A DNA stretch of 64,000 nt from Candidatus Gottesmanbacteria bacterium (GCA_903821745.1 CAIJMI010000004.1:85542-149541); one strand, 5' to 3'; counted from the first letter of the stretch, positions 16,444-49,772 are shown. Notes: generated by a model not told the origin, from the letters alone. Numbers and translations are program-made.

Positions 16444-16446
16444 ATG

Positions 16447-24963: not shown

Positions 24964-26343
24964 TTAGGCTGAAGGAGGTTTGGGTTTTGTCTTCAGATTC
25001 TGCAGAATTGATTGTCCATAATAGAAACCAGATACCGCTTGTGTCCCCGTTTGGAATGCTCCAGTAATTGGGCTTAATGCAGCTCCTGCACCCATCGGAA
25101 CCATTGGTTTTGCTTTAAGTGATTCTTGGATTCCTTTGACGATATTTGGAATGATAAAAAGCATACCAAGACCAATAAGCCCTCCAACACCTCCACTACC
25201 GGTTCCCAACATTGGAGGAGTCCAGGTTTTTGTAGATGTACCAATTAAATACCAGCTTACAGTTATGCAAATGGCAGTGATTGGAAAAACGATGAGATGA
25301 GAAATAAGATTTTTTATCCACGAAGCAAACCCATTTCCTCCTGGAACAGCATCGAGCAGTAATTGAATAGGAGCGGTAATAAGACTGATAATGATTTGTA
25401 TGTATGCGTTTAAAAGCATGAAAAAGAGGCGAACTCCACCAAAGAGAAAAGCAAGAGATAAAAGAACAAAGATTAATACTCCCACTACATCATAGACTGG
25501 ATTAAAAAGAGCAAAATAACCAAGTTGTGATTGGCCAGGAAAGAGAAAAGCCATGAGGTCGGGTAATGAGTTAAATCCTGCAAGAAGACCTCGGTTGACA
25601 GCGGAAAAACTACTACTGGAGATGCGCGTAATATGTCCAGCATCAAACATTCCTGTGGGACTTGCATTAACAATAAGTTGAACCCCAAGAATAAGGACAA
25701 CATACATAAGATCAATTAAAATTCCAACAATCGCATAGGAGAAGGTAATAAGAATAAGGGTGATGACGATTTTTGGGAGCGCATTTTGGACTGTTACAAC
25801 AGTTTTTGGATCAATCTTTTTTCGAAACATCACCATAAATCCAATGACAACCATGATGATTGCAAGAAGCGCGTAGCTAATATTTCGGAACGCTTTCCAA
25901 ATGGGAAGGAGTGTTACAAGTCCAGAAAAACCTATGCCTTGCGCATATGCTTTTTTGGGCATAAACCCAAGGGTTTGTCCCATATCTTGCACAAAGGCAT
26001 ATGTTGATGCGGGCGGATTTGCATACATGGTATAGATATAGTTAGATAATCCAGCCATGGCACTTTGTTGCCGCATCGCCTCTGCATAGGGAGTATTCAT
26101 ATCCGCAGCAGATACTGTCAGCCCAGGAACAGGTCCTAAGACACGCCTCACAAAATCTGAGTAGTTATTAGTGTTTACATTTGATACATGAGCAGCAGCG
26201 TTAACATCAGATTGTTTTGCAGCTGCGCTCATGCTTTCTGCATAACCCGCGTCCACCCAACTGGTCTCTTGTGCGTGCACACGAAGAGGCAGTAAGAAAA
26301 GGGTAAAGAGAAAGAAAATCACGTAATACAAGGACCGTTTCAT
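24964..26343 (-). CDS. VirB6/TrbL-like polytopic T4SS membrane protein
   Basis: Signal peptide (…LPLRVHAQE) then >=6 TM helices over 459 aa; immediately upstream of pilin-like gene array. Confidence 0.5.
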   Translation of the reverse strand: MKRSLYYVIFFLFTLFLLPLRVHAQETSWVDAGYAESMSAAAKQSDVNAAAHVSNVNTNNYSDFVRRVLGPVPGLTVSAADMNTPYAEAMRQQSAMAGLSNYIYTMYANPPASTYAFVQDMGQTLGFMPKKAYAQGIGFSGLVTLLPIWKAFRNISYALLAIIMVVIGFMVMFRKKIDPKTVVTVQNALPKIVITLILITFSYAIVGILIDLMYVVLILGVQLIVNASPTGMFDAGHITRISSSSFSAVNRGLLAGFNSLPDLMAFLFPGQSQLGYFALFNPVYDVVGVLIFVLLSLAFLFGGVRLFFMLLNAYIQIIISLITAPIQLLLDAVPGGNGFASWIKNLISHLIVFPITAICITVSWYLIGTSTKTWTPPMLGTGSGGVGGLIGLGMLFIIPNIVKGIQESLKAKPMVPMGAGAALSPITGAFQTGTQAVSGFYYGQSILQNLKTKPKPPSA

Positions 26344-26381
26344 ATTGGTATTATCTGTTACTTTGCAACAAGCGTCAAGAT

Positions 26382-26756
26382 TTATTGCGTTTTATAAATT
26401 TGAAATATCGTCAAGTTTTGAATGCCGGTAACTTTTTGAATAATAAGAAGAATAAGATAGCTACCAACGAGAAGTGCAAGGCCGATAATCGCATTGGAAA
26501 TGGTCCCTTTGGCTTTTTCTAGTTTTTTTTGGTCACCGCCGGAAAAGAGGAAGGTAAATCCTCCAATGACCAGCATGACAAATAAGACAACGCCAGCAAA
26601 TGCAGTAACAGCACGTATCACATTGCCAAATACCGAAACTAGCGATGAAATGGTTGCAACATCCGCTGGTCCATTAGGCCCAGCCTTTTCCAGGCCAACC
26701 CAATTAGAAGTTGCTTGCGCAAGGGTGTTCATGATGTTAAGTATACCAGATATCAA
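26382..26756 (-). CDS. VirB2/TrbC-like T4SS pilin family protein (paralog 1)
   Basis: Two hydrophobic helices separated by conserved GG(F)TFLFSGGD..K motif; ~100-135 aa; member of 6-gene tandem array. Confidence 0.5.
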   Translation of the reverse strand: MISGILNIMNTLAQATSNWVGLEKAGPNGPADVATISSLVSVFGNVIRAVTAFAGVVLFVMLVIGGFTFLFSGGDQKKLEKAKGTISNAIIGLALLVGSYLILLIIQKVTGIQNLTIFQIYKTQ

Positions 26757-26803
26757 AAATCCCCCAAAGGGGGATTTTTGAATATACTCTTATTTTTAAC
26801 AAA

Positions 26804-27136
26804 TTAATACGGTTTTGGAAGGTTAATTCCTTGAGAACCGATGATGTTGACGCCTAAGAAACTCTGCACCAACATCATAATTGCCCACGCCGCTCCGACG
26901 ATAATAAGTCCAACGATTGCATGAGTAATTTTATTTCGTGCTGCTTCCATGGCTGCTTTGTCTCCACCTGAGGTAATCCATTGAAGACCACCCAAAATCA
27001 AGAACAAAAATGCCATGAGTGCGGCCAAAATAAGGAGTGTTCCGACAACTGCACTTATTAGTTGTCCAACATCGGTAATGCGGATACCCGTTGGTTGTGC
27101 AACAGTAAGATCAGCTGCAAATAGTTTTTCTAACAT
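26804..27136 (-). CDS. VirB2/TrbC-like T4SS pilin family protein (paralog 2)
   Basis: LILGGLQWITSGGDKAAMEAARNKITHAIVGLIIV motif; strong SD (AGGAGGTGA) upstream. Confidence 0.5.
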   Translation of the reverse strand: MLEKLFAADLTVAQPTGIRITDVGQLISAVVGTLLILAALMAFLFLILGGLQWITSGGDKAAMEAARNKITHAIVGLIIVGAAWAIMMLVQSFLGVNIIGSQGINLPKPY

Positions 27137-27222
27137 ACGTCACCTCCTTAAATTACTTTACAATTAGTACAAAATAGGAACAATGCTTATTTTATTATAC
27201 GGTACTCACTGTAAATCAGCAA

Positions 27223-27570
27223 TCAACCACCAAACGATGGAATTTTGAGTGCTTTGATGTCGATACCCAAAAATTGTCCAATCAGCGTGAATATCGCATA
27301 TGCTGCTGCAACAATAATCAGTCCAATCATTGCATTCGTTATTTTATTTCGTGCCTGTTCCAGTTGTGCTTTGTCTCCGCCAGACGTGAGCCATTGAATG
27401 CCGCCAAGGAGAAGATACATAAATGTGAGAAAGAATGCAAAAATAAAAAGAAGCCCTGCAATGTTACTGACTAATTTTCCAATGACGGTTCCTCCTTGTT
27501 CAGTTGTTCCAGACCCCAAAAGTGGTGGGAGAACGGGATTCGTAATTTGTGCAAGTATTTGTTGTCCCAT
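27223..27570 (-). CDS. VirB2/TrbC-like T4SS pilin family protein (paralog 3)
   Basis: LLLGGIQWLTSGGDKAQLEQARNKITNAMIGLIIV motif. Confidence 0.5.
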   Translation of the reverse strand: MGQQILAQITNPVLPPLLGSGTTEQGGTVIGKLVSNIAGLLFIFAFFLTFMYLLLGGIQWLTSGGDKAQLEQARNKITNAMIGLIIVAAAYAIFTLIGQFLGIDIKALKIPSFGG

Positions 27571-27572
27571 GA

Positions 27573-27980
27573 TTATTTAAAAATAATACTATTTATATTC
27601 GGTGATAAAATATTTGTCCATCCAAAGAATTGGCCTGCAAGCGCAACAATAGCCCATCCTACAACAACAATGACCAATCCGATGAATGCATTGGATATTT
27701 TATCACGTGCTTCCGTGAGTTTTGCTTTATCTCCTCCAGCAGTGATCCAACTAATACCGCCAAGTAAAACTTGGATGAAAAACCATATAGCTGCAACAAC
27801 AGTTAAAAGACCAATAATGGCAGAGATCGCTCCGGTAAATTTCGTCATGACGTTACCAGCATTAAAACTTCCGGTTCCAAAAGGACCAAGACCAGATCCG
27901 CCAATGCGATCGGTTGTGAGTGGTACGGCCTGCTGTGCGAGAAGTCTATCCATATTAAGGTGTGACGGCTGATGGGCCAT
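27573..27980 (-). CDS. VirB2/TrbC-like T4SS pilin family protein (paralog 4)
   Basis: VLLGGISWITAGGDKAKLTEARDKISNAFIGLVIV motif; real start may be internal Met (MDRLLAQ) removing overlap with next gene. Confidence 0.5.
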   Translation of the reverse strand: MAHQPSHLNMDRLLAQQAVPLTTDRIGGSGLGPFGTGSFNAGNVMTKFTGAISAIIGLLTVVAAIWFFIQVLLGGISWITAGGDKAKLTEARDKISNAFIGLVIVVVGWAIVALAGQFFGWTNILSPNINSIIFK

Positions 27981-28335
27981 AAATAACTGGTTTTAATATA
28001 AACATTGCATCTCCAAATAATATGTATCCAAATAAGGCAGCAAGAACGAACGATCCCGCAATAATGGCAAGTCCAAGGAGTGTTTGCCAAATTCTTCCCC
28101 AGGCTTTGGTGAGTGCTTTTGAGTCGCCACCAGCGCTCATATATTCAAAACCAGCAATAATTAAATTGATGAATGCGTAAATCCCGGCAACCACAAAGAC
28201 AAGACGAAGGAGATTGGATAAAAATACGACTAAACCACCACCTCTGACGTCGGCATACGGAAGGGGATTTGAAATTTTTCCGATAATGTCAGTTGCTGAC
28301 GTGTCTGCTAGAGCAAAAATGCGTTCGATAAACAT
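27955..28335 (-). CDS. VirB2/TrbC-like T4SS pilin family protein (paralog 5)
   Basis: LIIAGFEYMSAGGDSKALTKAWGRIWQTLLGLAII motif. Confidence 0.45.
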   Translation of the reverse strand: MFIERIFALADTSATDIIGKISNPLPYADVRGGGLVVFLSNLLRLVFVVAGIYAFINLIIAGFEYMSAGGDSKALTKAWGRIWQTLLGLAIIAGSFVLAALFGYILFGDAMFILKPVIYGPSAVTP

Positions 28336-28336
28336 A

Positions 28337-28651
28337 TTATTTTGGTAAAATGGTTACTCCGGTAATTATTTCAATAATCTGTATGATCCAGTAGGAAGCA
28401 AAAATAAGAACAAGCCCAATTGCTGCTGATGTCAGTGCTTGTTTACTCTGTTCTGCTTTTTTTGCATCCCCGCTACCTGCTGATACTATAAAGCTAAAAC
28501 CTCCAAAAATCAATAAAACTAAGAAAATAACGCCTGCGATAACGAAGGCGTTTTTAAGGATAACATTAACAAAAGACCCGATGGTAGGAAATGATTTGGC
28601 GGGAGCAAATACTTGTCCAATATTAACTGTTGGAATTGGTTCCATATTCAA
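28337..28651 (-). CDS. VirB2/TrbC-like T4SS pilin family protein (paralog 6)
   Basis: LIFGGFSFIVSAGSGDAKKAEQSKQALTSAAIGLVLI motif. Confidence 0.45.
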   Translation of the reverse strand: MNMEPIPTVNIGQVFAPAKSFPTIGSFVNVILKNAFVIAGVIFLVLLIFGGFSFIVSAGSGDAKKAEQSKQALTSAAIGLVLIFASYWIIQIIEIITGVTILPK

Positions 28652-28703
28652 AAGTGTACGAAATCTGCGTTAGAAACACAAGAAGGGCATTTCATGGTAT
28701 AGT

Positions 28704-29255
28704 ATGAAGCACGGTATGGACGATGCAAAACTGATTTCTCGAATACTTGCTCGTGACGAACACGCCCTCCACGAGTTTTATATTACTTACGCGCCAAAAT
28801 TGCGCAGGTTTATCCAAACAAAAATTCAAAATCCAAATGATGGGGAAGATATTTTACAGGATACACTCTATGCATTTTTGGATGCTATTCGTGATTTTCA
28901 AGGCAACTGTCAAATGAACACGTTTTTGCAGTCAATCTGTAACCATAAAATTATTGATTACTATCGTAAAAAAAAGATACGAAATGTGGTATTTTCCCAA
29001 CTACCAGAAGTGGAAGGTTTAGTTTCTCCCTTATTAAATCCCGAAGAAGCGCTTGATGAAGTTGTGTTACGTGAGGAATTGCATAAAACATTAAATAAAT
29101 TGCTCCCGCAATACAAGCATGTTCTGTATTCCAGATATATATTAAACATGCCGGTTGCGGATATCGCAAAAAAACTCGCAGTTACTTTAAAAAGTGCAGA
29201 ATCGATGCTGTTTCGTGCAAAAAAAGCATTTGTCAAAACCCATGAACACATTTAA
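28704..29255 (+). CDS. RNA polymerase sigma-70 factor, ECF subfamily
   Basis: Region 2 (ILQDTLYAFLDAIRDF..) and region 4 HTH (MPVADIAKKLAVTLKSAESMLFRAKKAF) signatures; 183 aa. Confidence 0.8.
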   Translation: MKHGMDDAKLISRILARDEHALHEFYITYAPKLRRFIQTKIQNPNDGEDILQDTLYAFLDAIRDFQGNCQMNTFLQSICNHKIIDYYRKKKIRNVVFSQLPEVEGLVSPLLNPEEALDEVVLREELHKTLNKLLPQYKHVLYSRYILNMPVADIAKKLAVTLKSAESMLFRAKKAFVKTHEHI

Positions 29256-29472
29256 ATACAAAAATTTGGTTTCTCGGTGGAGAGAAACGACAGAGTTGAC
29301 GCCACAGACGGTTGGGCCATTGACTGGACTGTATAAACAGGTTACCCATCGATTAAAAATCATGCCTATTCCAACGTTGATTTTGTTAAGCTGTATTCTT
29401 GTTTGCGGTGTTGTGTTTCTTTTAGGGCCTTCTATTGCTTCCCTGGTGAGCCTTCTGCAGCGAGGGTTTTAA
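29242..29472 (+). CDS. Putative single-pass anti-sigma factor (small membrane protein)
   Basis: Overlaps ECF sigma stop; short cytoplasmic N-terminus then one TM helix (PIPTLILLSCILVCGVVFLLGPSIASLV); assignment by position only. Confidence 0.3.
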   Translation: MNTFKYKNLVSRWRETTELTPQTVGPLTGLYKQVTHRLKIMPIPTLILLSCILVCGVVFLLGPSIASLVSLLQRGF

Positions 29473-29497
29473 CGTCCTGTTACGACAAATACTATAT

Positions 29498-30115
29498 ATG
29501 AAGGGACATACCTTACGTGGGTGTATTGGATTTGCAAGAACAACCATTGGTCTTGTTACTCGCCCATACGAAACATACCGCCGGATTGTTAATCACGGCT
29601 CCTTGTGGGAATTGGTTCCGCTTTCCGTACTCCTTGCATGTTATTTTGCAATTGCCTCATTGGTAAAAACTGCAGCATTTCGTCCATTTGTATTAACAAA
29701 ACAATTTATTATTCTTGCCATTTCGGTTTGTGTGACCTATGGGGTGACGGTTTCATTATTGTGGTGTGTTGCAAAAATCATGAAGGGAAAAGGAACGTTT
29801 CGTTCACTTGCGCTTGCGTGGGGATATACCCTTGTACCAACCCTGCTGTGGTTTTTAATTACGTCGCTTCTTTATGTGCTGTTTCCACCACCGCGAACAG
29901 GAAGACCACTTGGTATATTGTTTAGCGCGTTATATCTATCTTTTTCAACCGTTCTTTTTTTCTGGAAGGCGATGCTTACCTATCTTACATTACGGTTTGG
30001 TATGCGGCTCGACCTGTTTCGAATTATTGCTGTATGTGGAATTGTTGGAAGCGTAATGGTATTTTATAGTCTTGGGATGTATCACTTAGGGATTTTTAAA
30101 ATTCCATTTATATAA
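29498..30115 (+). CDS. Polytopic membrane protein (Yip1-domain-like)
   Basis: Five predicted TM helices, 205 aa; no catalytic motif. Confidence 0.35.
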   Translation: MKGHTLRGCIGFARTTIGLVTRPYETYRRIVNHGSLWELVPLSVLLACYFAIASLVKTAAFRPFVLTKQFIILAISVCVTYGVTVSLLWCVAKIMKGKGTFRSLALAWGYTLVPTLLWFLITSLLYVLFPPPRTGRPLGILFSALYLSFSTVLFFWKAMLTYLTLRFGMRLDLFRIIAVCGIVGSVMVFYSLGMYHLGIFKIPFI

Positions 30116-30116
30116 T

Positions 30117-31259
30117 ATGAAATTAAATAAAACAGAGTCAGTATCCAGAAGACGAAAAGAAGTTGAAAAATACTTACATATTTCTCTTGCTAACACTGGC
30201 TCCTTTTCACTGGATGAAGAAATGGCTGCAACACGGCACTGTGAACACATGATTGGGGTAACGCAAGTTCCACTCGGTGTTGCAGGCCCACTCAAATATA
30301 GAACGTTGCAGTCACCATTTCAGGAAGTATATCTTCCACTTGCCACAACGGAGGGTGCGCTTATTGCATCTATTAATCGGGGATGTAAAGCAATTGTTGA
30401 AAGTGGAGGAGCGGTCGTGGATAGCTATGATGTTGGGGCAACACGTGGTCCGGTATTTTACACAAAAAATTTGAAGGAAAGCGATCGACTAAACATATTT
30501 TTGGATGCGCATCTTAAAGAAATGCAACAACTTGTTCGAGTTACATCGAATCACTGTACACTAAAAAAAATATTTTCCCGTGGTGTTGGACAATATCGGT
30601 TTGTTCGTTTTGTGTTTGATACACAAGATGCCATGGGCTTAAACATGGTAACCATTGCCACAGAAAAAATTGCACAATATATCGAAGAAAAAACAGGAAT
30701 TGTTTGCGTTTCATTATCCGGAAACTATTGTGTCGACAAAAAGCCATCATGGCTTAATGCAATTGAGGGGCGTGGCTCAAAAGTGTGGGCAGAAGTTGTT
30801 ATTCCGGAAACAGTAATAAAAAGCATACTTAAAACAACGGCGCAAAATATATATGACGTCTGGATTTCAAAATGCATGATGGGAAGCGTGATGAGTGGTT
30901 CGATGGGCTATAACGCACAATTTGCCAATGTCCTAGCAGCGGTCTTTTTGGCAACAGGCCAGGACATCGCACATGTTATAGAATGTTCAATTGGTATCAC
31001 CACGACGGAAGTTCGCGGGAAAGATTTATATGTGAGTGTGTATTTGCCGGACCTTTTGGTGGGCACTGTGGGTGGCGGGACCGAACTTGCCACGCAAAAA
31101 GAAGCATTACAAATTCTTGGCGTATATGGAAAAGACAAAAAACAATTTGTAGGAATTATTGGGGCAGCGGTGCTTGCTGGAGAAATTTCACTCCTGGCGA
31201 GCTTGGCTGAAGGAACGCTTGCGAAAGCACACATAAAGCTGGCAAGAGGAAAGAAATAA
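30117..31259 (+). CDS. hmgA: Hydroxymethylglutaryl-CoA reductase
   Basis: Conserved HMGR motifs EHMIGVTQVPLGVAGPL, DAMGLNMV, GTVGGGT; 380 aa. Confidence 0.85.
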   Translation: MKLNKTESVSRRRKEVEKYLHISLANTGSFSLDEEMAATRHCEHMIGVTQVPLGVAGPLKYRTLQSPFQEVYLPLATTEGALIASINRGCKAIVESGGAVVDSYDVGATRGPVFYTKNLKESDRLNIFLDAHLKEMQQLVRVTSNHCTLKKIFSRGVGQYRFVRFVFDTQDAMGLNMVTIATEKIAQYIEEKTGIVCVSLSGNYCVDKKPSWLNAIEGRGSKVWAEVVIPETVIKSILKTTAQNIYDVWISKCMMGSVMSGSMGYNAQFANVLAAVFLATGQDIAHVIECSIGITTTEVRGKDLYVSVYLPDLLVGTVGGGTELATQKEALQILGVYGKDKKQFVGIIGAAVLAGEISLLASLAEGTLAKAHIKLARGKK

Positions 31260-31266
31260 TACAGAT

Positions 31267-32310
31267 ATGATTGGCATCGTCTCATACGGAACATATGTAC
31301 CAAAATATCGGGTGAGAGTTACCGATATAGCTTCTGCATGGAAGAAAAATCCCGCTGATATTATCGGTGTCCTTGGGGTAAAAGAAAAAACGGTTCCCGG
31401 TGTGGATGAAGATGCAGTAACCATAGCGGTAGAGGCAGCACTGCAAAGTCTGAAAAATTTTCATGGGATCCCAGCAGATATTGAAGCTTTGCTTATTGGA
31501 TCAGAAAGCCATCCATATGCAGTGAACCCTTCATCAACTATTGTTGGGGAGATGCTTGAAATTGGAAACAAGTATTTGGCATCGGATTTGGAATTTGCAT
31601 GTAAAGCAGGAACTGCCGGCATGCAAATGATTGCCAGTTTGGTTTCCTCAGGGCAAATAACCTATGGTATGGCCATTGGTGCAGATACCGCACAAAGCAA
31701 ACCTCACGATGCGTTGGAATATACTTCCGCTTCTGCAGGAGTTGCAATGTTGATGGGGAAAACAAAGACGATTGCATCGTTGTTGTCATACACATCCTAT
31801 TCTTCAGACACACCAGATTTTTGGCGGCGTGATGGAATTCGGTATCCGTCACATGCAGGCAGATTTACTGGAGAACCTGCATATTTTGCACACGTTATGG
31901 GAGCAGCAAACCAATTGATGAAAAAAGTGCGTATTCAGCCTAAAGATATTGATTACTGTATTTTTCATATGCCAAATGGAAAATTCCCTCGTGAAGTTGC
32001 AAAACGGTTGGGATTTACCGAGAAACAATTGGCTCCGTCTTTGACTGTTGATTATATCGGCAATCCCTATTCTGCATCAGCCATGATGGGGCTTGCTGCG
32101 GTACTCGATATTGCAAAACCAAACAAAAAAATATTTATGGTGTCCTACGGATCAGGTGCAGGGAGCGACGCATTTTTATGGAAAACAACAGCAAACATTA
32201 CTGCGTTGCAGGCAAAACGAAAAAAGCAGCAAGGTCTAGTGATGCAACAAGTGGAACAGAAAAGCTTTGTCGATTATCTTGGATATCTAAAACAAACACA
32301 CAAAATATGA
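31267..32310 (+). CDS. Hydroxymethylglutaryl-CoA synthase (archaeal/PksG-like type)
   Basis: N-terminus MIGIVSYGTYVPKYRV typical of archaeal HMGS; thiolase-like fold; followed by thiolase and DUF35 genes. Confidence 0.8.
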   Translation: MIGIVSYGTYVPKYRVRVTDIASAWKKNPADIIGVLGVKEKTVPGVDEDAVTIAVEAALQSLKNFHGIPADIEALLIGSESHPYAVNPSSTIVGEMLEIGNKYLASDLEFACKAGTAGMQMIASLVSSGQITYGMAIGADTAQSKPHDALEYTSASAGVAMLMGKTKTIASLLSYTSYSSDTPDFWRRDGIRYPSHAGRFTGEPAYFAHVMGAANQLMKKVRIQPKDIDYCIFHMPNGKFPREVAKRLGFTEKQLAPSLTVDYIGNPYSASAMMGLAAVLDIAKPNKKIFMVSYGSGAGSDAFLWKTTANITALQAKRKKQQGLVMQQVEQKSFVDYLGYLKQTHKI

Positions 32311-33449
32311 ACATAACCGTTGCAGGAATCGGTATTACAAAGTTTGGAGAATTATGGTCAGCCTCTCCGCGGTCGCTTGCGAAGATTGCGGTGGAAATGG
32401 CAATTGCTGATAGCGGTGTTGAAAAGAAATCAATTCAAGGATTGTTTGTTGCAAATATGCTTGCAGGAATGCTGGGAATGCAGGGTCATCTTGGCGCATT
32501 ATTTTCTGAAGAGCTGGGACTTTCTGTTCCTGCATATACTGTTGAAGGAGCGTGTGCATCTGGCGGACTGGCAGTACAAGCCGGTGTCATGAGTATTCTG
32601 TCTGGACAGTACGATACCGTCGTAGTACTTGGGGTAGAAAAAATGACGGATCACAAACCGGAAGAAGTAAGCTCTGCATTGATGGGGGCGGGAAGTAATG
32701 AAGAGCGACTTGCAGGTGCAACATTCCCGGGACTCTATGCCATGCTTGCTCGGGCGCATATGGAAAAATTTGGTACAACAGAAAAACAAATGGCAGCAGT
32801 TGCAGTAAAGAATCATTTTCATGCAAGTTTAAACCCAAATGCACAATATAAGAATACAATTACCGTTGATCACGTACTGCGCAGTTCTTGTATTGCAGAC
32901 CCATTGAAACTTTTGGATTGTTCTCCAGTAACAGATGGCGCCGCAGCAATTGTCCTTACGAAAGACACAAAAAACAAAAAAGGAGTGCATATCATTGCTT
33001 CCCAAATAGCAACAGATACGTTGGGACTTGCGGGGAGGAAAAGCTTAACTGAGCTTTCTGCAACCAAACAAGCAGCGCAACATGCATTTATCCAAGCTGG
33101 AGTTGGTCAAAAAGATATTCATCTTGCGGAAGTACATGATTGTTTTACCATTGCAGAAATTCTTGCCATTGAAGATATTGGATTTGGAAAAAAAGGAGAA
33201 GTTGGAAGAGAGATGGAACATGGTACATACACGCTTGGAACTGCACCGGGAGTTGTTGTGAATTCGTCAGGAGGACTGAAAGGGTGTGGTCATCCAATTG
33301 GTGCAACTGGTGTAAAACAAATTGTTGAAATTACCAGCCAATTACGAGGAACGTGCGGAAAACGGCAGGTTCATGATGCAAAAATTGGACTTGCACATAA
33401 CGTTGGGGGAAGTGGCGCAACCGCGGTTGTTCACATTTTACAAAAATAA
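32307..33449 (+). CDS. Acetyl-CoA acetyltransferase (thiolase, archaeal type)
   Basis: Start set at MNITVAGIGITKFGE (ATGA overlap with HMGS stop); C-terminal thiolase motifs GCGHPIGATG and NVGGSGA. Confidence 0.8.
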   Translation: MNITVAGIGITKFGELWSASPRSLAKIAVEMAIADSGVEKKSIQGLFVANMLAGMLGMQGHLGALFSEELGLSVPAYTVEGACASGGLAVQAGVMSILSGQYDTVVVLGVEKMTDHKPEEVSSALMGAGSNEERLAGATFPGLYAMLARAHMEKFGTTEKQMAAVAVKNHFHASLNPNAQYKNTITVDHVLRSSCIADPLKLLDCSPVTDGAAAIVLTKDTKNKKGVHIIASQIATDTLGLAGRKSLTELSATKQAAQHAFIQAGVGQKDIHLAEVHDCFTIAEILAIEDIGFGKKGEVGREMEHGTYTLGTAPGVVVNSSGGLKGCGHPIGATGVKQIVEITSQLRGTCGKRQVHDAKIGLAHNVGGSGATAVVHILQK

Positions 33450-33453
33450 AAAT

Positions 33454-33753
33454 ATGATAAGCCCTGTTAAAATTTGGCGAAATCAAAAACACACAGCGAA
33501 ACTCGTCGGAAAAACCGGCAGTATTTTAGTCTGGACCATTATCCGCGTGCCACCTGAAGGATTTAGTAATCAAGCACCGTATCCACTTGCGGTGGTTGTT
33601 CTTGATAAAGGACCAACTATTACTGCACAGGTTGTTGATTGGGACGAGAAACAATTGCACACAAAACAAAAAGTGATTACGGTTATTCGTCGGACAATTG
33701 ATACAACTGCTGACGGGGTGATTCCATACGGCATGAAAGTAAAACCAGTATGA
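33454..33753 (+). CDS. DUF35 OB-fold protein (HMGS/thiolase complex partner), no Zn-ribbon
   Basis: ~99 aa ORF immediately after thiolase, start MISPVK 4 nt after thiolase stop; position and size match third subunit of archaeal thiolase/HMGS complex; lacks Cys of Zn ribbon. Confidence 0.5.
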   Translation: MISPVKIWRNQKHTAKLVGKTGSILVWTIIRVPPEGFSNQAPYPLAVVVLDKGPTITAQVVDWDEKQLHTKQKVITVIRRTIDTTADGVIPYGMKVKPV

Positions 33754-34688
33754 TAACAGTTTCTGTTCCAGGAAAAATTCATTTGATGGGAGAGCATGCG
33801 GTGGTATATGGGACACCGGCGCTACTTGCGGCAATCAATAAACGCATGTCTATATCAATTGAATCCGCAAAAAAAACTGAAATTATCACGTTGGAATCAA
33901 AAAAGTATGTGTCGTATGCACTTGAACAGGTAAAAAAATATTTGCATATGGAAACGCTCCCTCCAATGCGGATTACCATCACATCAAATATCCCTGCAGG
34001 ATTTCACTTAGGGTCATCTGCAGCAGCAGCCGTTGGTATCGTTGCTGCTGTTATTTATTTCATAAAAAAAATATGGAATCCAAATTTAATAAATCAAATT
34101 GCCTATGAGGTAGAGAAAAAGCAACATGGAAATCCATCTGGTGGAGATAATACCATAGTGACCATGGGGGGAATGATCTGGTTCCGGAAAGAATTAGAAT
34201 TTTTAAAAAGCATATGGCAACTTGATATAGCCATTCCTAAATCATTAAATCATTTTGTCCTTGTAAATACCGGGAAGCCAAAAGAAACAACTGGAGAGAT
34301 GGTTGCTTTCGTTCGAATAAAAGTAAATAAGAATCCAGAAAAAATGAAACGATTGTTCCTAGAAAATGAAGAACAAGTGAAAAAAATTGCAGTAGCAATA
34401 AAAGAAGAAAATGAGACAATGTTACTGAATGCACTTAAACAGGGTGAACAAACACTTGAAAAAATGGGAGTTGTTGGCAAAACAATTATTCCTTGTATAC
34501 GGGCAATTGAAGCATCAGGGGGAGCAGTAAAAATTCTAGGTGGCGGCGGAAAAAAGGAAGGCGTTGGGTTTCTTCTCTGCTATCATAAAAAGAAGAAGAT
34601 TTTGGAAAACATAACAAAAAAATTTGGTTATCCTATTGAAAACATTGTATTAGGAGAAGCAGGCGTTCGTCTTGACCGAAAGGAATAA
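33750..34688 (+). CDS. mvk: Mevalonate kinase (GHMP kinase)
   Basis: N-terminal PGKIHLMGEHAVVYG and GHMP motif PAGFHLGSSAAAAVG. Confidence 0.7.
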   Translation: MITVSVPGKIHLMGEHAVVYGTPALLAAINKRMSISIESAKKTEIITLESKKYVSYALEQVKKYLHMETLPPMRITITSNIPAGFHLGSSAAAAVGIVAAVIYFIKKIWNPNLINQIAYEVEKKQHGNPSGGDNTIVTMGGMIWFRKELEFLKSIWQLDIAIPKSLNHFVLVNTGKPKETTGEMVAFVRIKVNKNPEKMKRLFLENEEQVKKIAVAIKEENETMLLNALKQGEQTLEKMGVVGKTIIPCIRAIEASGGAVKILGGGGKKEGVGFLLCYHKKKKILENITKKFGYPIENIVLGEAGVRLDRKE

Positions 34689-34693
34689 GAAAT

Positions 34694-35617
34694 ATGTTGA
34701 CTGTTTCAGCACCAGGAAAACTTATGCTTATGGGGGAACATGCCGTTGTGTACGGATACCCCTGTATTGTAACCGCGGTGTCTGAACGGTTATCTGTGTC
34801 AATTGAAGAAACACAGGATGAAAAAATAACTATTGATGCGCCACAGGTGAAGGACACCCGATTTGTGGATCAGGCAATTATTGAAGGATGTAAGGCATGG
34901 AACATTACGCATCATGGTTTACGTTTAACCACCCACAGCAATTTTTCTAACTGTTATGGATTCGGATCATCATCAGCGGTTACTGTTGCAACACTGTATG
35001 CAATTGCAACCCTTTTTAAACAATCTCTTGATACAAAAATGTTGTTTGATCTTGCATATCAAACCGTGCTTGCAATTCAAGGTGTAGGTTCTGGATTTGA
35101 CATTGCCGCAGCAATATATGGTGGAACGATCGTTTATACAAAAGGCGGAAAAATTTTAGACCAACTAGCATGGGATTTAAATAATGATGTGTCACTGGTT
35201 GTTGGATATACGGGAATGAAAGCAGATACACCAACCATTGTAAAAGAGATCGCAAAAAAGAAAGAAGAACAACCAGAACGGGTAAATAGAATTTTTGAAG
35301 CAATTGCAAAACTCGTGATGCAGGCCAAAACTGCAGGAGACAAAAAAGATTGGGAAACTGTTGGGAAATTTATGAATTTCAATCAAGAATATTTGCGTGA
35401 TCTTGGAGTAAGCACTGAAAAACTTGAGGTAATGATTCATGCGGCAAACAAAGCAGGGGCCTACGGTGCAAAATTATCGGGCGCAGGAGGCGGCGATTGT
35501 ATGATTGCACTGACCCTAACGGAAAAAAAGAAAATTATTGAACAGGCAATTATTTCAGTAGGTGGTATTGTTGTTCCCGTGAGTATCCATACGGAAGGGG
35601 TACGGATAGAGCAATGA
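34694..35617 (+). CDS. GHMP kinase, probable phosphomevalonate kinase
   Basis: PGKLMLMGEHAVVYG N-terminus and GFGSSSAVTVA GHMP motif; second GHMP kinase between mvk and decarboxylase. Confidence 0.55.
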   Translation: MLTVSAPGKLMLMGEHAVVYGYPCIVTAVSERLSVSIEETQDEKITIDAPQVKDTRFVDQAIIEGCKAWNITHHGLRLTTHSNFSNCYGFGSSSAVTVATLYAIATLFKQSLDTKMLFDLAYQTVLAIQGVGSGFDIAAAIYGGTIVYTKGGKILDQLAWDLNNDVSLVVGYTGMKADTPTIVKEIAKKKEEQPERVNRIFEAIAKLVMQAKTAGDKKDWETVGKFMNFNQEYLRDLGVSTEKLEVMIHAANKAGAYGAKLSGAGGGDCMIALTLTEKKKIIEQAIISVGGIVVPVSIHTEGVRIEQ

Positions 35618-36597
35618 TAAAAATAACGGTGGTTGCACCAGCAAATATCGCGTTTATAAAATATTGGGGCAAACGGTCAGAAAAATTTCGAATACCACTC
35701 AATGATTCCATTTCCATGAATTTAAGCGGAGCAGCAACAACAACAACGGTGGAATTTTCTTCTGCGTTTGAGAAAGACGACATTACATTTAGTGGAGAAA
35801 CAATTTCAGAAAAAGAAATCGAACGGATAACAACGCATCTGGATCGGGTTCGACGTATTGCTCACAAAAAAATATATGCTCGTGTAGTAACGAAAAATTC
35901 TTTTCCAAAAGGAACAGGAATTGCATCATCTGCATCCGGATTTGCAGCACTCACCGTTGCAGCGACACAAGCAATTGACCTTCGTCTTTCAGAAAAAGCG
36001 GTAACTATACTTGCTCGTATTGGATCAGGGTCTGCATGTCGAAGTATTCCTGACGGATTTTCTTGGTGGCATGCTGGAAAAAAATCGTCTGATTCTTATG
36101 CAGAATCTTTTGTTCCATCAACGTGGTGGGATATACGTGACATCTTGTGTGTTGTTTCAACGGAAGCAAAAAAAATATCAAGCACGGAGGGAATGGAGAA
36201 TATACGAACCAGCCCTTATTGGCAAGAACGGATATTGGGAATACCAGAAAAAATTGGGCGCGTGCAACAGGCTATAAAAGAACGAAATATTAACACACTT
36301 GGTAGCATTATCGAAGAAGATGCAATTTCAATGCATTGTGTCATGATGACGCAAAAACCCCCGTTATTTTATTGGAATGATACGACATTGCGGGTTATGG
36401 AAGGAGTGTATGCACTTCGAGCAAAAGGATTTCCAGCTTACTTTACGATAGACGCTGGTCCTAATGTACACATCATTTGCAGAAGTGAAGAGGAACAAAT
36501 CATTGTGGAAGAAATGAAGAGAATAAACGGTGTACAATCTATTATTGTAAATGAACCGTGTTTAGGAGCACATAGTATTTCAAGTCATCTATTTTAA
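35614..36597 (+). CDS. mvaD: Diphosphomevalonate decarboxylase
   Basis: N-terminal APANIAFIKYWGKR signature, GHMP fold (GIASSASGFAAL). Confidence 0.8.
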   Translation: MIKITVVAPANIAFIKYWGKRSEKFRIPLNDSISMNLSGAATTTTVEFSSAFEKDDITFSGETISEKEIERITTHLDRVRRIAHKKIYARVVTKNSFPKGTGIASSASGFAALTVAATQAIDLRLSEKAVTILARIGSGSACRSIPDGFSWWHAGKKSSDSYAESFVPSTWWDIRDILCVVSTEAKKISSTEGMENIRTSPYWQERILGIPEKIGRVQQAIKERNINTLGSIIEEDAISMHCVMMTQKPPLFYWNDTTLRVMEGVYALRAKGFPAYFTIDAGPNVHIICRSEEEQIIVEEMKRINGVQSIIVNEPCLGAHSISSHLF

Positions 36598-36598
36598 T

Positions 36599-37285
36599 AT
36601 GGAAGAAAAAAAGATCATCCCACAACATATTGCAATTATCATGGATGGAAATCGGCGGTGGGCAAAAGAGCGGGGGTTGCCAACGATTGAGGGGCATAGA
36701 AAAGTTGCAGATGAAATACTTGAACCACTAATAGAACACGCCGCTAATAAGGGTGTGAAATACATAACACTGTGGGCCTGGTCAACAGAAAATTGGAACC
36801 GTTCAAGTGCTGAAGTATCTGCCATTATGAAACTATTTCACCATATTATTCAAAATCGCTGGGGGAGATTACATGAAAAAGGCGTGAAAATTAGGGTGAT
36901 TGGTGATATTTCCAAGTTCTCGCCTGACATTAAAGACGCCATCACCAAAGTCATTGAGCAAACAAAGAATAATACGAGGATAACGGCAATTTTTGCACTA
37001 AATTATGGCGGACGCGATGAAGTGATTCGAGCAATAAAGAAAATTAAAAATTTTAAAGAAATGACAACAGAGACGTTTGGAAATGCGCTTGATACTGGGG
37101 GAATTCCAGATCCGGAACTCATCATCAGAACAGGTGGAGAACAACGGTTATCTGGATTTTTGTTATGGCAAAGTGAATATAGTGAGTTATCATTTCCTTC
37201 TTGGTATATGCCAGAATTTATACCAAAAAAATTAGATGAATTAATTGAAGAATTTCATTCTCGACAAAGAAGATTTGGTAAGTAA
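36599..37285 (+). CDS. uppS: Undecaprenyl-diphosphate synthase (cis-prenyltransferase)
   Basis: PQHIAIIMDGNRRWA catalytic motif, C-terminal RFG(K); terminal gene of mevalonate operon. Confidence 0.85.
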   Translation: MEEKKIIPQHIAIIMDGNRRWAKERGLPTIEGHRKVADEILEPLIEHAANKGVKYITLWAWSTENWNRSSAEVSAIMKLFHHIIQNRWGRLHEKGVKIRVIGDISKFSPDIKDAITKVIEQTKNNTRITAIFALNYGGRDEVIRAIKKIKNFKEMTTETFGNALDTGGIPDPELIIRTGGEQRLSGFLLWQSEYSELSFPSWYMPEFIPKKLDELIEEFHSRQRRFGK

Positions 37286-37287
37286 AT

Positions 37288-37617
37288 TTACTTAAATATA
37301 TTTCCTATAGCGCTGATGCCAAAAATAATGCCAAGAAGCTGAGTTAACCAGAAGGCGACAAAAATAACAATGAATCCTACGATGGCATATGTCAGTGTTT
37401 GTTTCCCCTTTTCCATTTTTTTTGTATCGCCAGCGCTTGTTAAAAGTGTAAAACCTGCGCTAATTATCATAATGAGAAGTCCGATGCCAGCTATTGGGAG
37501 AGCGAATTTAAAGATACCGCTCAGAATATCTCCGAGTGTTTTTGTGGTATTTCCTAACGGGCCTACATAAGTGGTTCCACCTGGAAATTCTACTTTTTGT
37601 GCAAGTAATAAATGCAT
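37288..37617 (-). CDS. VirB2/TrbC-like pilin family protein (paralog 7)
   Basis: IISAGFTLLTSAGDTKKMEKGKQTLTYAIVGFIVI motif, same family as 26.4-28.7 kb array. Confidence 0.45.
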   Translation of the reverse strand: MHLLLAQKVEFPGGTTYVGPLGNTTKTLGDILSGIFKFALPIAGIGLLIMIISAGFTLLTSAGDTKKMEKGKQTLTYAIVGFIVIFVAFWLTQLLGIIFGISAIGNIFK

Positions 37618-37618
37618 A

Positions 37619-38182
37619 TTATTTGAAACCTGGAATAGCTAATATTTTTACGCCTATAAGTTGCAACAGAAAAATGGAAAATATGATGAGCAAGAGTCCT
37701 GTGATAGCTGCGTTGACAAGTTCTTTTCCTGCGTTAAGTTTTTCAGGATTTCCTGCTGACATCATAATTTGAAGTGCTCCAAATAAAATCAGGAGAAAGG
37801 CGATTCCTCCTGCAATGCCTACGCCTAAGGTTGAAAGGGTAGTAACTAATCCAATTGCTGTTGCATCAATGCAACCGATTGCTGTCCACACTTTTGTATT
37901 CGTTTTCATGCAATCTTTACAGTGTGTTTGATCTGCTGGGTTAGGAAGGATTTCACAAGCAGTCTTTGGGATTATTATACTATTTCCTTCACTTTCAGCA
38001 CACCGTAAATTGAAATAACAAATATTTTGCCCAACGACGATAGAATTACCACTACAACAGGTTTTACCAAGAGGTTTACATTCCCCATTCGGAATGCAAT
38101 CTGCCGCCACAATGGGAGTCCCTTGAGTCAGAAAGAGTACCGCAACAACAAAGGTAAGTATGAAAGAAACTACTTTTTTCAC
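37619..38182 (-). CDS. Pilin-like protein with N-terminal Cys-rich (10 Cys) extracytoplasmic domain (paralog 8)
   Basis: Signal/TM then ~80-aa segment with 10 Cys (CIPNGECKPLGKTCCSGN...CKDC...), C-terminal pilin-like module ILFGALQIMMSAGNPEKLNAGKELVNAAITGLLLI. Confidence 0.45.
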   Translation of the reverse strand: MKKVVSFILTFVVAVLFLTQGTPIVAADCIPNGECKPLGKTCCSGNSIVVGQNICYFNLRCAESEGNSIIIPKTACEILPNPADQTHCKDCMKTNTKVWTAIGCIDATAIGLVTTLSTLGVGIAGGIAFLLILFGALQIMMSAGNPEKLNAGKELVNAAITGLLLIIFSIFLLQLIGVKILAIPGFK

Positions 38183-38229
38183 TCTTTAAGTGTATCAAAG
38201 CTCCCCTTTAAAGAAAAGGGCATGATAGA

Positions 38230-40014
38230 ATGGACATACGCATGAAACGCTTAGTTGGTATACTATTTTTTCTTTGTTTGCTTTTTTTTACATTTCCTTT
38301 TGTGTCGCCAACTCATGCTCAAGAGTGCACCGTTCCAAATTGTGATCCGAGCGGTTCTGATTGTTGGGATCAGTTGCAAAAAGCAAAAGATAAATGTTCG
38401 CAAGCGATCAGTGCGATTGAAGCAGCAAAAAAACCACATGTTGATGAACTGCAAAAACTACAAAACGCGATTACTGCGTTTCAAACTCGAATTAAGGCGA
38501 TCGAAGATGAAGCCTTAAAAAAGGCACTTGCAATTGCCGCGGGTGAAAAAGAATTAAATGGGTTGCTTGCAATAGCAGACGTGAAGATTCGATCGTTTTA
38601 CATGCATTCGTTTAATGTGAGTCCGTTATTTGCATTTTTATCCTCAGCAAGTATCGGATCAGCAATGCGTGCATATGGATATCAACAAGCAGTCGTGAAT
38701 GCTGATAAAAAAGTGATTGTGCAAACGGCAACCATGGTGAAGGATTTAGAAGATAGAAAAGCAGCATTGGAAATAGAGAAGATAAATCTTGCGGCATTGA
38801 AGGCAGATGTTGATAAAAAAGCGGTATCTATTAAGCAGTTGGTGGATTCTGCAAATTCATATGAAAACGTGTTAAGTACAACGCTTGCTGCAGTGAGCGC
38901 AAAACAACAAAGCTTTTTGGCACAAAAACTTGCAGGTCTCGGTATCCCATTATTTGCCATCTCAGGTGGGGGGTGTTCAAGCGATTTAACCAATGGAAAA
39001 GACCCTGGTTCTGGTTTTAATGGGGCTTTTGGATTTTTTAGTTTTGGAGTGCCAAATAGGGTAGGACTGAATCAATATGGTGCATGGGGTCGCGCAAAAG
39101 CAGGACAGGGATATGAAACAATTCTTCGTGCATATTATAATTTTGATTCCATAGAGCATCGCGATGCCACAATTAATGTTGAAGGATATAAAGGATATCC
39201 ACTTGATGAGTATGTTCAACGTGTTTATGAAGTCCCAGCATCATGGACGGAAAATAATTCCGCAGCATTAAAAGCCCAAGCAATCGCAATTCGATCTTAT
39301 GCCCTTGCATATACAAATAACGGTTCTGGATCAATATGCACAACGCAACAATGTCAGGTATTCAAGCCTGATCCAAAAACTGATAACAATAATGCTTGGA
39401 TAAACGCCGTTAATGCAACAGCTGGATTAGTTATGGTTCAGGGGGGCAGTCCTATTAAAGCATTTTTTTCTTCAACACATGGGGGTTATGCATTTAATAC
39501 AGGAGATCTAACTGGGTGGTCTACAACGGGATATACAAAACGTATGGTGGATACATCGAGTGGATCTTTTTCAGGGTTTTCCGATTTACGGAATAATGCA
39601 TATGATAAAGATAGTCCATGGTTTTATTGTGATTGGGGTGGTCGAAGTAGTGCTAATGGAACTGCATGGTTAAAGCCTGATGAAGTAGCCGATATTGTGA
39701 ATGTCATGCTTCTTGTCCAACAGGATAGCAGTGCACAAAATCATGTTGTGCAAACAGATAAACCAAATCCAGATGGAACAGATACGTGGGATGCAAGTAC
39801 CGTTCGTTCTAAGCTTGGCGGATCCGCATACAACACTATTGCCAACATTAGTGTAAATGCAGATTTTGGTGTTGGTCGTGTGACCAGTGTTACGGTATCA
39901 GGCGATGGCAAAACGAGTACGTTTAATGGAAATGATTTTAAGACCTATTTTAACTTGCGGGCTCCATCCAATATTCAAATTGTCGGTCCCTTGTTTAATG
40001 TTGAACGGAAGTAG
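38230..40014 (+). CDS. Secreted SpoIID/LytB-domain protein with N-terminal coiled-coil region
   Basis: Signal peptide; coiled-coil 60-260; C-terminal SpoIID/LytB signature (ALKAQAIAIRSYALAYTNN...ICTTQQCQVFKP). Confidence 0.65.
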   Translation: MDIRMKRLVGILFFLCLLFFTFPFVSPTHAQECTVPNCDPSGSDCWDQLQKAKDKCSQAISAIEAAKKPHVDELQKLQNAITAFQTRIKAIEDEALKKALAIAAGEKELNGLLAIADVKIRSFYMHSFNVSPLFAFLSSASIGSAMRAYGYQQAVVNADKKVIVQTATMVKDLEDRKAALEIEKINLAALKADVDKKAVSIKQLVDSANSYENVLSTTLAAVSAKQQSFLAQKLAGLGIPLFAISGGGCSSDLTNGKDPGSGFNGAFGFFSFGVPNRVGLNQYGAWGRAKAGQGYETILRAYYNFDSIEHRDATINVEGYKGYPLDEYVQRVYEVPASWTENNSAALKAQAIAIRSYALAYTNNGSGSICTTQQCQVFKPDPKTDNNNAWINAVNATAGLVMVQGGSPIKAFFSSTHGGYAFNTGDLTGWSTTGYTKRMVDTSSGSFSGFSDLRNNAYDKDSPWFYCDWGGRSSANGTAWLKPDEVADIVNVMLLVQQDSSAQNHVVQTDKPNPDGTDTWDASTVRSKLGGSAYNTIANISVNADFGVGRVTSVTVSGDGKTSTFNGNDFKTYFNLRAPSNIQIVGPLFNVERK

Positions 40015-42666: not shown

Positions 42667-43110
42667 ATGAATATCATCAACAAAAAAGCACCATTTGAAT
42701 ATACCATCGTGGACCGGATAGAAGCTGGTGTTGTTTTGACGGGCGCCGAGGTTAAATCGTTGCGATTAGGGCATGGGAAACTTGAAGGAGCATTTGTTAA
42801 AATACTTGGAGGAGAAGCTTTCCTGATTAATGCCGATATTGTGCAATATAGCTATGCCAGACCGCTTGGATACGATCCAAAACGGACAAGAAAGCTTTTG
42901 TTGCACAAAAAGGAGCTTATTTCGCTCCAAAGCAAGCTAGAAAGCGCTAAATTGACCTTAATACCTCTTTCTTGGTATACTAAAGGCCCCCAAATGAAGC
43001 TAGAAGTCGGGTTAGCTCGTGGGAAGAAAGAATACGAAAAACGCGAAATTTTGAAAAACGCCGACTTACGAAGAGAATTGGAAAGAGAATTTCGGGGAAA
43101 GATAAAATAA
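42667..43110 (+). CDS. smpB: SsrA-binding protein
   Basis: 147 aa, conserved N-terminus (IVDRIEAGVVLTGAEVKSLR) and basic C-terminal tail. Confidence 0.9.
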   Translation: MNIINKKAPFEYTIVDRIEAGVVLTGAEVKSLRLGHGKLEGAFVKILGGEAFLINADIVQYSYARPLGYDPKRTRKLLLHKKELISLQSKLESAKLTLIPLSWYTKGPQMKLEVGLARGKKEYEKREILKNADLRRELEREFRGKIK

Positions 43111-43518
43111 GGGGATGTACGATTCGACAGAAATGCACTTTGACAGATGGCAAGCCGACATGGATACATTGTCGATAATCAGGTATCAAAAAATACATGC
43201 TGATACAACCATCAGTAAACTTGAAGCGAAACTTGCTCAACTTGAGCAGGCGTTAGCATTCAAGAGTTCCCGCGCTTTTGCATACGCACGAGCATAAGGA
43301 ATCATCCTTTCGTTCCTGTTTTCCAGCGAGTAGCGTAAGGGTGACAATATAGCTGGAACGTCAAAAATCGAAATGACTGGTTCGATTTTGGTGTTTATTT
43401 CAGTCACACCCTGTTTACTTTTTTGTCTATATTTAGGTAAATAGGAAATGAAATAGACTACGCTTGTAGATGTTTGTTATTTGCGTTTTTGGACCCGGGC
43501 TCACCCCCGGCATCTCCA
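43111..43518 (+). ncRNA. ssrA: tmRNA (transfer-messenger RNA)
   Basis: 5' end GGGGAUGUACGAUUCGACAG matches canonical tmRNA 5' tRNA-like domain (cf. GGGGCUGAUUCUGGAUUCGACGGG) and starts 1 nt after smpB stop; 3' end CAUCUCC(A) pairs with 5' GGGGAUG giving acceptor stem with G3-U70 wobble (Ala identity); GC-rich T-arm-like element 43495-43511. 3' boundary approximate; tag ORF not confidently resolved. Confidence 0.6.
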
Positions 43519-43570
43519 CTTAAGAAAAACGGCGAATATATAGGAACAATCTATATACCGCCGTATTTTT

Positions 43571-44845: not shown

Positions 44846-44865
44846 CAAAAATCATCAATGCACAA

Positions 44866-49217: not shown

Positions 49218-49226
49218 CAAAAAGTT

Positions 49227-49312: not shown

Positions 49313-49346
49313 CATAAAAAAGGAGCGAAAATAACAAAGGAGGCAT

Positions 49347-49766: not shown

Positions 49767-49772
49767 AAGTAA

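Follow-up and report, generated by a model that had tools for sequence, protein, structure and literature searches.

A probable mevalonate-to-polyprenyl operon with archaeal-type first steps and a ribbon-less DUF35 protein in a Gottesmanbacteria-like bacterium

How a bacterium of the Candidate Phyla Radiation (CPR) makes the isoprenoid precursor of its envelope carrier lipid, and with enzymes of which ancestry, is the question raised by a cluster of eight genes in a 64,000-nt stretch of DNA from Candidatus Gottesmanbacteria bacterium (GCA_903821745.1 CAIJMI010000004.1:85542-149541). We call this whole stretch the window, and all positions are counted along it unless another locus is named. The cluster occupies positions 30117-37285 on the plus strand and had originally been predicted to encode a complete mevalonate pathway with an archaeal-type trio of 3-hydroxy-3-methylglutaryl-CoA (HMG-CoA) synthase, thiolase and DUF35 protein, terminating in undecaprenyl diphosphate synthase (UppS). 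Our analysis supports, with a probability of about 0.85, that the locus represents the mevalonate-to-polyprenyl operon standard in CPR bacteria of the Microgenomates, the host being Gottesmanbacteria-like. It mainly confirms the published picture of archaeal-type first steps in CPR Microgenomates, with an output genetically tied to the carrier lipid, and makes one modest addition: the DUF35 gene, overlooked in the published description (PMC6107057), has in this lineage a conserved 99-aa form devoid of the zinc ribbon.

The eight-gene cluster and its conservation

Gene identities were established by scanning the open reading frames (ORFs) of the window with Pfam and NCBIfam models and comparing bit scores with the curated cut-offs, and gene boundaries were checked against independent gene calls on the source contig (ENA ERZ27313374 k141_417974, 233,936 bp). 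Eight tightly packed plus-strand genes were found in the unit, with identical boundaries in the source-contig call, which confirmed the predicted co-directional, closely packed arrangement and ruled out chance as its cause. They encode, in order, a class I (NADPH) HMG-CoA reductase (HMGR, 380 aa, 30117-31259; PF00368, 377.5 bits), an archaeal-type HMG-CoA synthase (HMGS, 347 aa, 31267-32310), an archaeal-type acetoacetyl-CoA thiolase (380 aa, 32307-33449), the ribbon-less DUF35 protein (99 aa, 33454-33753), two GHMP kinases (GHMP-A, a divergent mevalonate-kinase-like paralogue, 33750-34688, and GHMP-B, 34694-35617), a mevalonate (di)phosphate decarboxylase (35614-36597) and, as the last gene, the cis-prenyltransferase UppS (36599-37285). 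The spacing between consecutive genes from HMGR to UppS is 7, −4, 4, −4, 5, −4 and 1 nt, and UppS is followed by a convergent ORF on the minus strand (37288-37617).

A scan for HMGS among GTDB species representatives retrieved seven bacterial and five DPANN archaeal loci. The bacterial ones come from metagenome-assembled genomes of Gottesmanbacteria and other Patescibacteria, plus one labelled Gammaproteobacteria that shows the same CPR-like synteny. Three further metagenomic contigs (L016, L017 and L018) were reached through distant short DUF35 proteins, which makes ten related CPR loci in total. The mevalonate gene order recurs in all ten, and six of them keep the full order of extracytoplasmic function (ECF) sigma factor, Yip1-domain protein, HMGR, HMGS, thiolase, short DUF35 protein, GHMP-A, GHMP-B, decarboxylase and UppS (five of the seven GTDB loci, L002, L004, L005, L007 and L008, and the Woesebacteria contig L016). 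As for the others, L003 ends after GHMP-B, L006 is devoid of Yip1 and of the downstream UppS, L017 carries the same mevalonate genes but has different genes separating the sigma factor from HMGR, and L018 begins at the thiolase and has two small genes between the decarboxylase and UppS. Recent horizontal transfer was considered and rejected: there is no GC signal, the GC content of the operon (0.39-0.43) being like that of its surroundings, and the flanking synteny is conserved across species. Because of this conserved synteny and matching GC content, the cluster is an old resident of the lineage. The host itself is best placed, from the names of homologues, the presence of PF18895 pilins and the CPR-like gene context, as a Gottesmanbacteria-like bacterium of the Microgenomates.

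An archaeal-type trio with a ribbon-less DUF35 protein

HMGR belongs to class I (406 bits with TIGR00533 versus 74 with the class II model TIGR00532) and has intact TTEG, DAMGLN and GTVGGG motifs. HMGS passes the archaeal equivalog model TIGR00748 (425 bits, cut-off 353) and scores 474 with NF003274 and only 114 with the bacterial model TIGR01835; its best match in the PDB is 6esq_I (354 bits, compared with 68 for bacterial MvaS structures). The thiolase is of the archaeal PRK06064 type (NF004720, 452 bits, cut-off 420; the equivalog model NF053570 gives 422, below its cut-off of 600), and its best PDB match is 6esq_A (282 bits, compared with 49 for thiolase II). Both enzymes are thus archaeal-type and not MvaS/MvaE-like, as had been proposed. 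The catalytic motifs are intact, both for the E-C-H-N tetrad of HMGS (GSESHPY, EFACKAGT, FHMPNG and GNPYS, at residues 78, 109, 233 and 265) and for the thiolase (CASG, HDCF and GHPIG, corresponding to CxS, HDxF and GHx, which according to PMC12960953 persist where mevalonate is made and disappear in the acylase derivatives). The thiolase gene has its true start at 32307, as in the source-contig call, and not at an upstream ATG (32178), so that the HMGS, thiolase and DUF35 genes lie adjacent on one strand with a 4-nt overlap at the HMGS stop followed by a 4-nt gap. Among solved structures, the Methanothermococcus thermolithotrophicus complex (6ESQ/6ET9) provides the best match to all three proteins, each to its own counterpart chain.

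The third member of the trio had been described as a DUF35-like OB-fold (oligonucleotide/oligosaccharide-binding fold) protein without the zinc-ribbon cysteines, and both statements proved correct. The 99-aa protein matches the OB-fold C-terminal domain of DUF35 (PF01796, 49 bits, cut-off 27) and contains zero cysteines. Its profile retrieved 6ESQ chain E from the PDB (E=1.2e-17), and its AlphaFold2 model (predicted local distance difference test score, pLDDT, 84.9), with a helix at residues 4-17 followed by a five-strand barrel, had 6esq_E as top Foldseek match in the PDB (E=1.8e-8, 35% identity). The segment VKIWRNQK of the N-terminal helix aligns with VRSWRHMK of the archaeal chain. DUF35 proteins consist of a short helix, a rubredoxin-like domain and an OB fold, and all structurally characterised members bind zinc (PMC6996347). 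When the CPR proteins were aligned with canonical DUF35 proteins of ~130-146 aa, encoded after the thiolase gene in the DPANN loci L009, L011 and L013, one clean gap of 32 columns spanned the CxxC...CxxC ribbon. The absence therefore concerns the whole ~32-residue Cys4 zinc ribbon and not the cysteines alone, the N-terminal helix and the OB fold being retained.

This short form is well conserved. Its 68 close homologues measure 98-108 aa and share an invariant N-terminus (MxSPVKIWRNQ), 18 columns are invariant among 27 sequences that diverge down to 47% identity, and the W8-R9 pair does not vary across 44 diverse short proteins with identities as low as 29%; a W-R pair also occurs in archaeal DUF35. 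A scan across all 1.84 billion cluster representatives yielded 1143 relatives. In the best 150 of them, which represent clusters at 50% identity, the short form without a ribbon accounts for 122 and proteins with two CxxC pairs for 17. The short form is present in every Microgenomates locus examined, and all organism names attached to its homologues are those of CPR bacteria (Gottesmanbacteria, Woesebacteria, Microgenomates and Patescibacteria). Because it is conserved in sequence, length and CPR distribution, the short protein appears to be a selected trait of the lineage and not an assembly or annotation artefact. Within the literature that could be searched, no paper brought DUF35 together with CPR terms, and we came across no description of a ribbon-less form. 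Two homologues of ~133 aa in the representative library (P0169 and P0187) keep a segment of ribbon length without any cysteine in it; therefore, zinc loss without deletion seems to have also occurred elsewhere in the DUF35 family.

By homology with 6ESQ, the helix and OB fold of the small DUF35 protein would hold thiolase and HMGS together. The thiolase would condense two acetyl-CoA, the resulting acetoacetyl-CoA would be consumed at once by HMGS, and a CoA site shared within the complex could pull the unfavourable first step forward. We consider it probable that the short protein still bridges the two enzymes, because it has its helix motif in common with the archaeal scaffold and because the partner subunits in archaea are reported to be insoluble or to lack activity when produced singly (PMC12960953), a behaviour that also speaks against the opposite possibility, namely that the protein is a decaying remnant, thiolase and HMGS being now separate or directly bound to each other. 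That the protein has lost a module present in every solved DUF35 scaffold (PMC6996347) would fit such decay, which nevertheless seems unlikely to us given that its length and position are fixed across Microgenomates, that its N-terminal motif is invariant with a W-R pair in common with archaeal DUF35, that not a single frameshift or truncation affects the gene in the ten related loci, and that the AlphaFold2 model is confident. Far more improbable still is that the trio carries out another acyl transfer, similar to that of PhlABC/MucABC or to DUF35-dependent fatty-acid or polyhydroxyalkanoate synthesis, and makes no HMG-CoA at all. DUF35 scaffolds do serve several pathways (PMC12960953; bioRxiv 10.1101/2024.07.05.601840), and PhlA, PhlB and PhlC form the second tier of structural matches to our three proteins. 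However, the window proteins have an intact HMGS tetrad and an intact HDxF motif in the thiolase, two features that complexes producing mevalonate keep and that the PhlABC/MucABC acylases have lost (PMC12960953), HMGS scores 354 bits against the archaeal enzyme versus 183-193 against PhlA, and the trio genes are embedded between those of HMGR and the kinases.

Kinases, decarboxylase and use of the product

Downstream of the trio reaction, mevalonate would be produced by the class I HMGR and phosphorylated twice by the tandem GHMP kinases, which share 28% identity. Their GHMP motifs are kept across the orthologues of both and are invariant in eight GHMP-A orthologues. With TIGR00549, GHMP-A falls just below the cut-off of 163 (159.7 bits) and GHMP-B above it (202 bits). 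Solved structures of mevalonate kinases (MVK) and phosphomevalonate kinases (PMK) were ranked by single-sequence and orthologue-profile searches. The best structure match of GHMP-A is rat MVK (73 bits), and an alignment of GHMP-B with the Methanosarcina MVK 6mde covers the whole protein (142 bits, and 208 with the orthologue profile). Neither passes the PMK models TIGR01220 (61 bits for GHMP-A and 117 for GHMP-B, cut-off 165.7) or NF040957 (50 and 97 bits, cut-off 500). Local motifs conflict with each other, PSGGDN in GHMP-A being MVK-like and GSGFDIAAAIYGG in GHMP-B resembling PMKs. On balance we lean towards GHMP-B as the mevalonate kinase, which would make GHMP-A the phosphomevalonate kinase by elimination; the reverse assignment is somewhat less likely. 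The predicted completeness of the pathway depends on one of the two MVK-like paralogues acting as PMK.

The next enzyme would release isopentenyl diphosphate (IPP), and its substrate can be predicted from several lines of evidence. The protein passes the diphosphomevalonate decarboxylase (DMD) model TIGR01240 (277 bits, cut-off 171) and fails the phosphomevalonate decarboxylase (PMD) equivalog model NF040704 (184 bits, cut-off 475). Its closest structures are 6n0z (289 bits) and 6n0x (283 bits). The latter is the phosphomevalonate decarboxylase of Anaerolinea thermophila (PMC9254496), and a switch of specificity from PMD to DMD has been obtained by mutagenesis (Thomas et al. 2019, according to PMC9254496). 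Two residues separate the structures in the printed alignments: where 6n0x has N in YWG[N/K]R and H in TQG[H/M]A, 6n0z has K and M, and we infer that 6n0z is the engineered variant and 6n0x the wild-type PMD. The window protein has K and M at these positions (YWGKR and STEGM), like the DMDs of S. aureus and E. faecalis, and its DAGPN motif, which carries the catalytic Asp, is present. The decarboxylase is therefore likely to be diphosphate-specific, since it passes the DMD model and fails the PMD one, has the K and M residues, is preceded by two kinase genes and has no isopentenyl-phosphate kinase (IPK) gene within 10 kb.

A route of the haloarchaeal/Chloroflexi kind, from MVK through a phosphomevalonate decarboxylase to IPK, with the second GHMP kinase otherwise employed, would explain why the closest structure of the decarboxylase is the Anaerolinea PMD (289 and 283 bits versus at most 213 for true DMDs) and why no GHMP kinase exceeds a PMK cut-off; moreover, IPK homologues have been reported in CPR genomes (PMC6107057). 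We nonetheless find it improbable. At the two positions discussed above the window protein agrees with true DMDs, whereas 6n0x, the presumed wild-type PMD, has N and H; the PMD model is missed by a wide margin, whereas the DMD model is passed; two conserved GHMP kinases always lie directly upstream of the decarboxylase; and the sole gene of amino-acid-kinase fold within 10 kb encodes an archaeal-type UMP kinase. This gene (L014 4376-5077, ~5 kb upstream of the window) was examined as an IPK candidate and discarded, as it reached only 38 bits with the IPK model. It matches the archaeal-type pyrH model TIGR02076 (173 bits, cut-off 158; the bacterial pyrH model gives 44) and adds one more archaeal-like enzyme to a CPR genome.

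Among the ten related CPR loci, six (L005 14513-15487, L006 14508-15482, L007 11317-12291, L008 10220-11194, L017 12062-13039 and L018 3491-4468) encode a decarboxylase homologue with NTG(Q/C)D in place of DAGPN, and in these six the M of STEGM is replaced by Q as well; DAGPN is found in the window, L002, L004 and L016. Since loss of the catalytic Asp converts DMD to a 3-kinase (PMC9254496), these lineages may use different chemistry. Alternatively, an Asp four residues later may substitute for the catalytic one.

The last gene is a clear UppS (TIGR00055, 233 bits, cut-off 109.6; PF01255, 241 bits), with the motifs DGNRRWA at residue 16 and RTGGEQRLSGF at residue 177. UppS requires an allylic primer, which comes from IPP isomerase (IDI) and a trans-prenyltransferase. 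If co-transcribed with the mevalonate genes, as their packing would suggest, UppS would use IPP to build the C55 lipid carrier on which peptidoglycan and surface glycans depend, and IDI and a short-chain trans-prenyltransferase would have to be encoded elsewhere in the genome. Consistent with the prediction that the window harbours no IPP isomerase, the only Nudix protein in it (52238-52708) has no match to an isomerase model. Tried as a type-1 IDI, this protein was rejected: it matches generic MutT/NudE-type models only, and the catalytic Cys and His are absent by eye. The pathway output had also been proposed to be wired directly to UppS. This stands as genetic linkage; biochemically the wiring is not direct, because UppS needs the allylic primer and the 84 kb formed by the window and its 10-kb flanks contain neither IDI nor trans-prenyltransferase. 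In L017, the operon runs past UppS into a trans-prenyltransferase gene (13043-14694; PF00348), which would supply the primer.

The surroundings of the cluster include polyprenyl-phosphate glycosyltransferases, a Wzy-like protein and SpoIID, and point to an envelope use of the product. A DedA-family membrane protein is encoded on the minus strand at 50300-50935 (NF008102, 258 bits, above its cut-off). Its similarity to models of the undecaprenyl-phosphate transporter UptA is weak (65 and 53 bits, below cut-offs), and it could plausibly act on the carrier lipid that UppS would make.

Several observations weigh against the standard operon that we favour. HMGR scores slightly under the TIGR00533 cut-off of 441.8. 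All structurally characterised DUF35 proteins bind zinc through the ribbon (PMC6996347), so that a ribbon-less one is a putative scaffold. Both GHMP kinases stay below the PMK cut-offs, solved MVKs outranking solved PMKs for both. The decarboxylase is overall nearer to phosphomevalonate decarboxylase than to any true DMD. Finally, the window and its 10-kb flanks yielded no gene for IDI, IPK or trans-prenyltransferase.

Taking these parts together, one may tentatively propose, although at somewhat less than even odds, that the operon retains a pair of evolutionary intermediates: a minimal 99-aa scaffold that assembles the thiolase/HMGS channeling complex, and a lower pathway placed near the PMD-to-DMD and MVK-to-PMK transitions, from which the NTGQD-bearing sisters may differ chemically. 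If so, the zinc ribbon would be dispensable for DUF35 scaffolding, one of the GHMP paralogues would be a lineage-specific phosphomevalonate kinase, and the decarboxylase would be a PMD-near enzyme with two diphosphate-type residues. A short DUF35 protein able to nucleate the channeling complex would define the minimal scaffold and reveal the bridging part of DUF35, and could be useful for engineering the flux from acetyl-CoA to HMG-CoA. The identities of the kinases and the decarboxylase, for their part, bear on the origin of the classical pathway from archaeal/Chloroflexi variants.

Genomic setting and comparison with described systems

Three plus-strand genes precede HMGR: an ECF-type sigma-70 factor (28704-29255; TIGR02937, 79 bits, cut-off 42.9), a 76-aa ORF (29242-29472) that is also called as a gene on the source contig (L001 5789-6019) and has no family match, and a Yip1-domain membrane protein (29498-30115; PF04893), the stop of which lies 1 nt before the HMGR start. 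The sigma factor is a conserved neighbour, found upstream of the mevalonate genes in six of the seven GTDB CPR loci and in L016 and L017; the Yip1 gene is syntenic in six of the seven and in L016. A small ORF occupies the position of the 76-aa ORF, in the interval between sigma factor and Yip1, also in L016 and L017. The Yip1 gene, given its 1-nt distance from HMGR and its synteny in related loci, is probably the first gene of a transcription unit whose start would lie upstream of 30117. A scan of 28300-38300 for consensus promoters and terminators gave counts at the level of shuffled sequence, uninformative on operon boundaries. An anti-sigma role is possible for the 76-aa ORF, and the conserved set of sigma factor, 76-aa ORF and Yip1 upstream suggests that carrier-lipid synthesis may be under envelope-stress control.

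The window also contains dnaA, dnaN, a CPR-type type IV secretion cluster, smpB with tmRNA, dnaG and rpoD. The secretion genes lie on both sides of the operon (10700-20011, 24964-28651 and 37288-38182) and include VirB4-like and coupling-protein-like ATPases and at least seven small PF18895 pilin genes; the same flanking was seen in the Woesebacteria contig L016. A block of low GC content (positions 1-8000, 0.33-0.365 versus 0.39-0.44 elsewhere) carries glycosyltransferase, Wzy-like and sugar-modifying genes and ends before dnaA-dnaN (8032-10696). The minimum of the cumulative GC skew falls at 8-10 kb, in keeping with an origin of replication beside dnaA. The gene smpB is directly followed by tmRNA (RF00023, 108 bits), and seven tRNA genes, of which four are tRNA-Ser with different anticodons, are present in the window (smpB, tmRNA and tRNA regions at 42667-43521, 44761-44956, 49146-50207 and 62354-62426). 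An integrase/transposase-like gene (61162-62292) adjoins a tRNA-Asn gene. Desulfoferrodoxin, a superoxide reductase typical of anaerobes, is encoded on the minus strand at 44273-44653 (TIGR00320, 147.4 bits, just over the cut-off of 146.9).

The mevalonate cluster of CPR bacteria is already known. Hoshino & Gaucher (2018, PMC6107057) described, chiefly in Microgenomates, archaeal-type acetoacetyl-CoA thiolase (AACT) and HMGS together with class I HMGR (HMGR-I), MVK, phosphomevalonate kinase (PMVK) and diphosphomevalonate decarboxylase (DPMD), the genes being typically clustered with a cis-prenyltransferase gene and the type I isomerase (IDI-I) being located elsewhere, often beside IPK. The pathway in CPR bacteria also appears in the Peribacteria genome paper (PMC4736985). 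The operon studied here is a further example of that cluster and its layout is not new, because the same enzyme set and the same cis-prenyltransferase linkage were reported in PMC6107057; taxon, second GHMP kinase (there PMVK) and an IDI outside the cluster agree as well. The original description of such an arrangement as unusual in bacteria consequently remains valid outside CPR, whereas within CPR Microgenomates it is the published norm (PMC6107057). What distinguishes our locus from the published account are the DUF35 gene, which has no occurrence there, the loss of the ribbon and the upstream sigma and Yip1 genes.

The archaeal 6ESQ complex shares with the window the adjacent trio genes, the intact catalytic motifs and a DUF35 protein with W-R helix and OB fold, and its chains are the best matches of the three proteins. 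In contrast, the window trio has no rubredoxin-like Cys4 ribbon (~32 residues), belongs to a bacterial host and shares its operon with UppS and all the lower-pathway genes. The classical MVK-PMK-DMD pathway of Gram-positive cocci (mvaK1-mvaD-mvaK2) resembles our locus in its two GHMP kinases and in a DMD-family decarboxylase with DMD-type residues. However, both kinases are here MVK-like, with no recognised PMK family, the decarboxylase is nearest to a Chloroflexi PMD, and the upper part is archaeal-type and not MvaS/MvaE. Finally, the Friedel-Crafts acyltransferases PhlABC and MucABC (PDB 5M3K and 9VBO) represent another bacterial tripartite set of HMGS-like, thiolase-like and DUF35 proteins, in which the HMGS tetrad and the HDxF motif have been lost and the zinc ribbon kept, the reverse of what the window trio exhibits.

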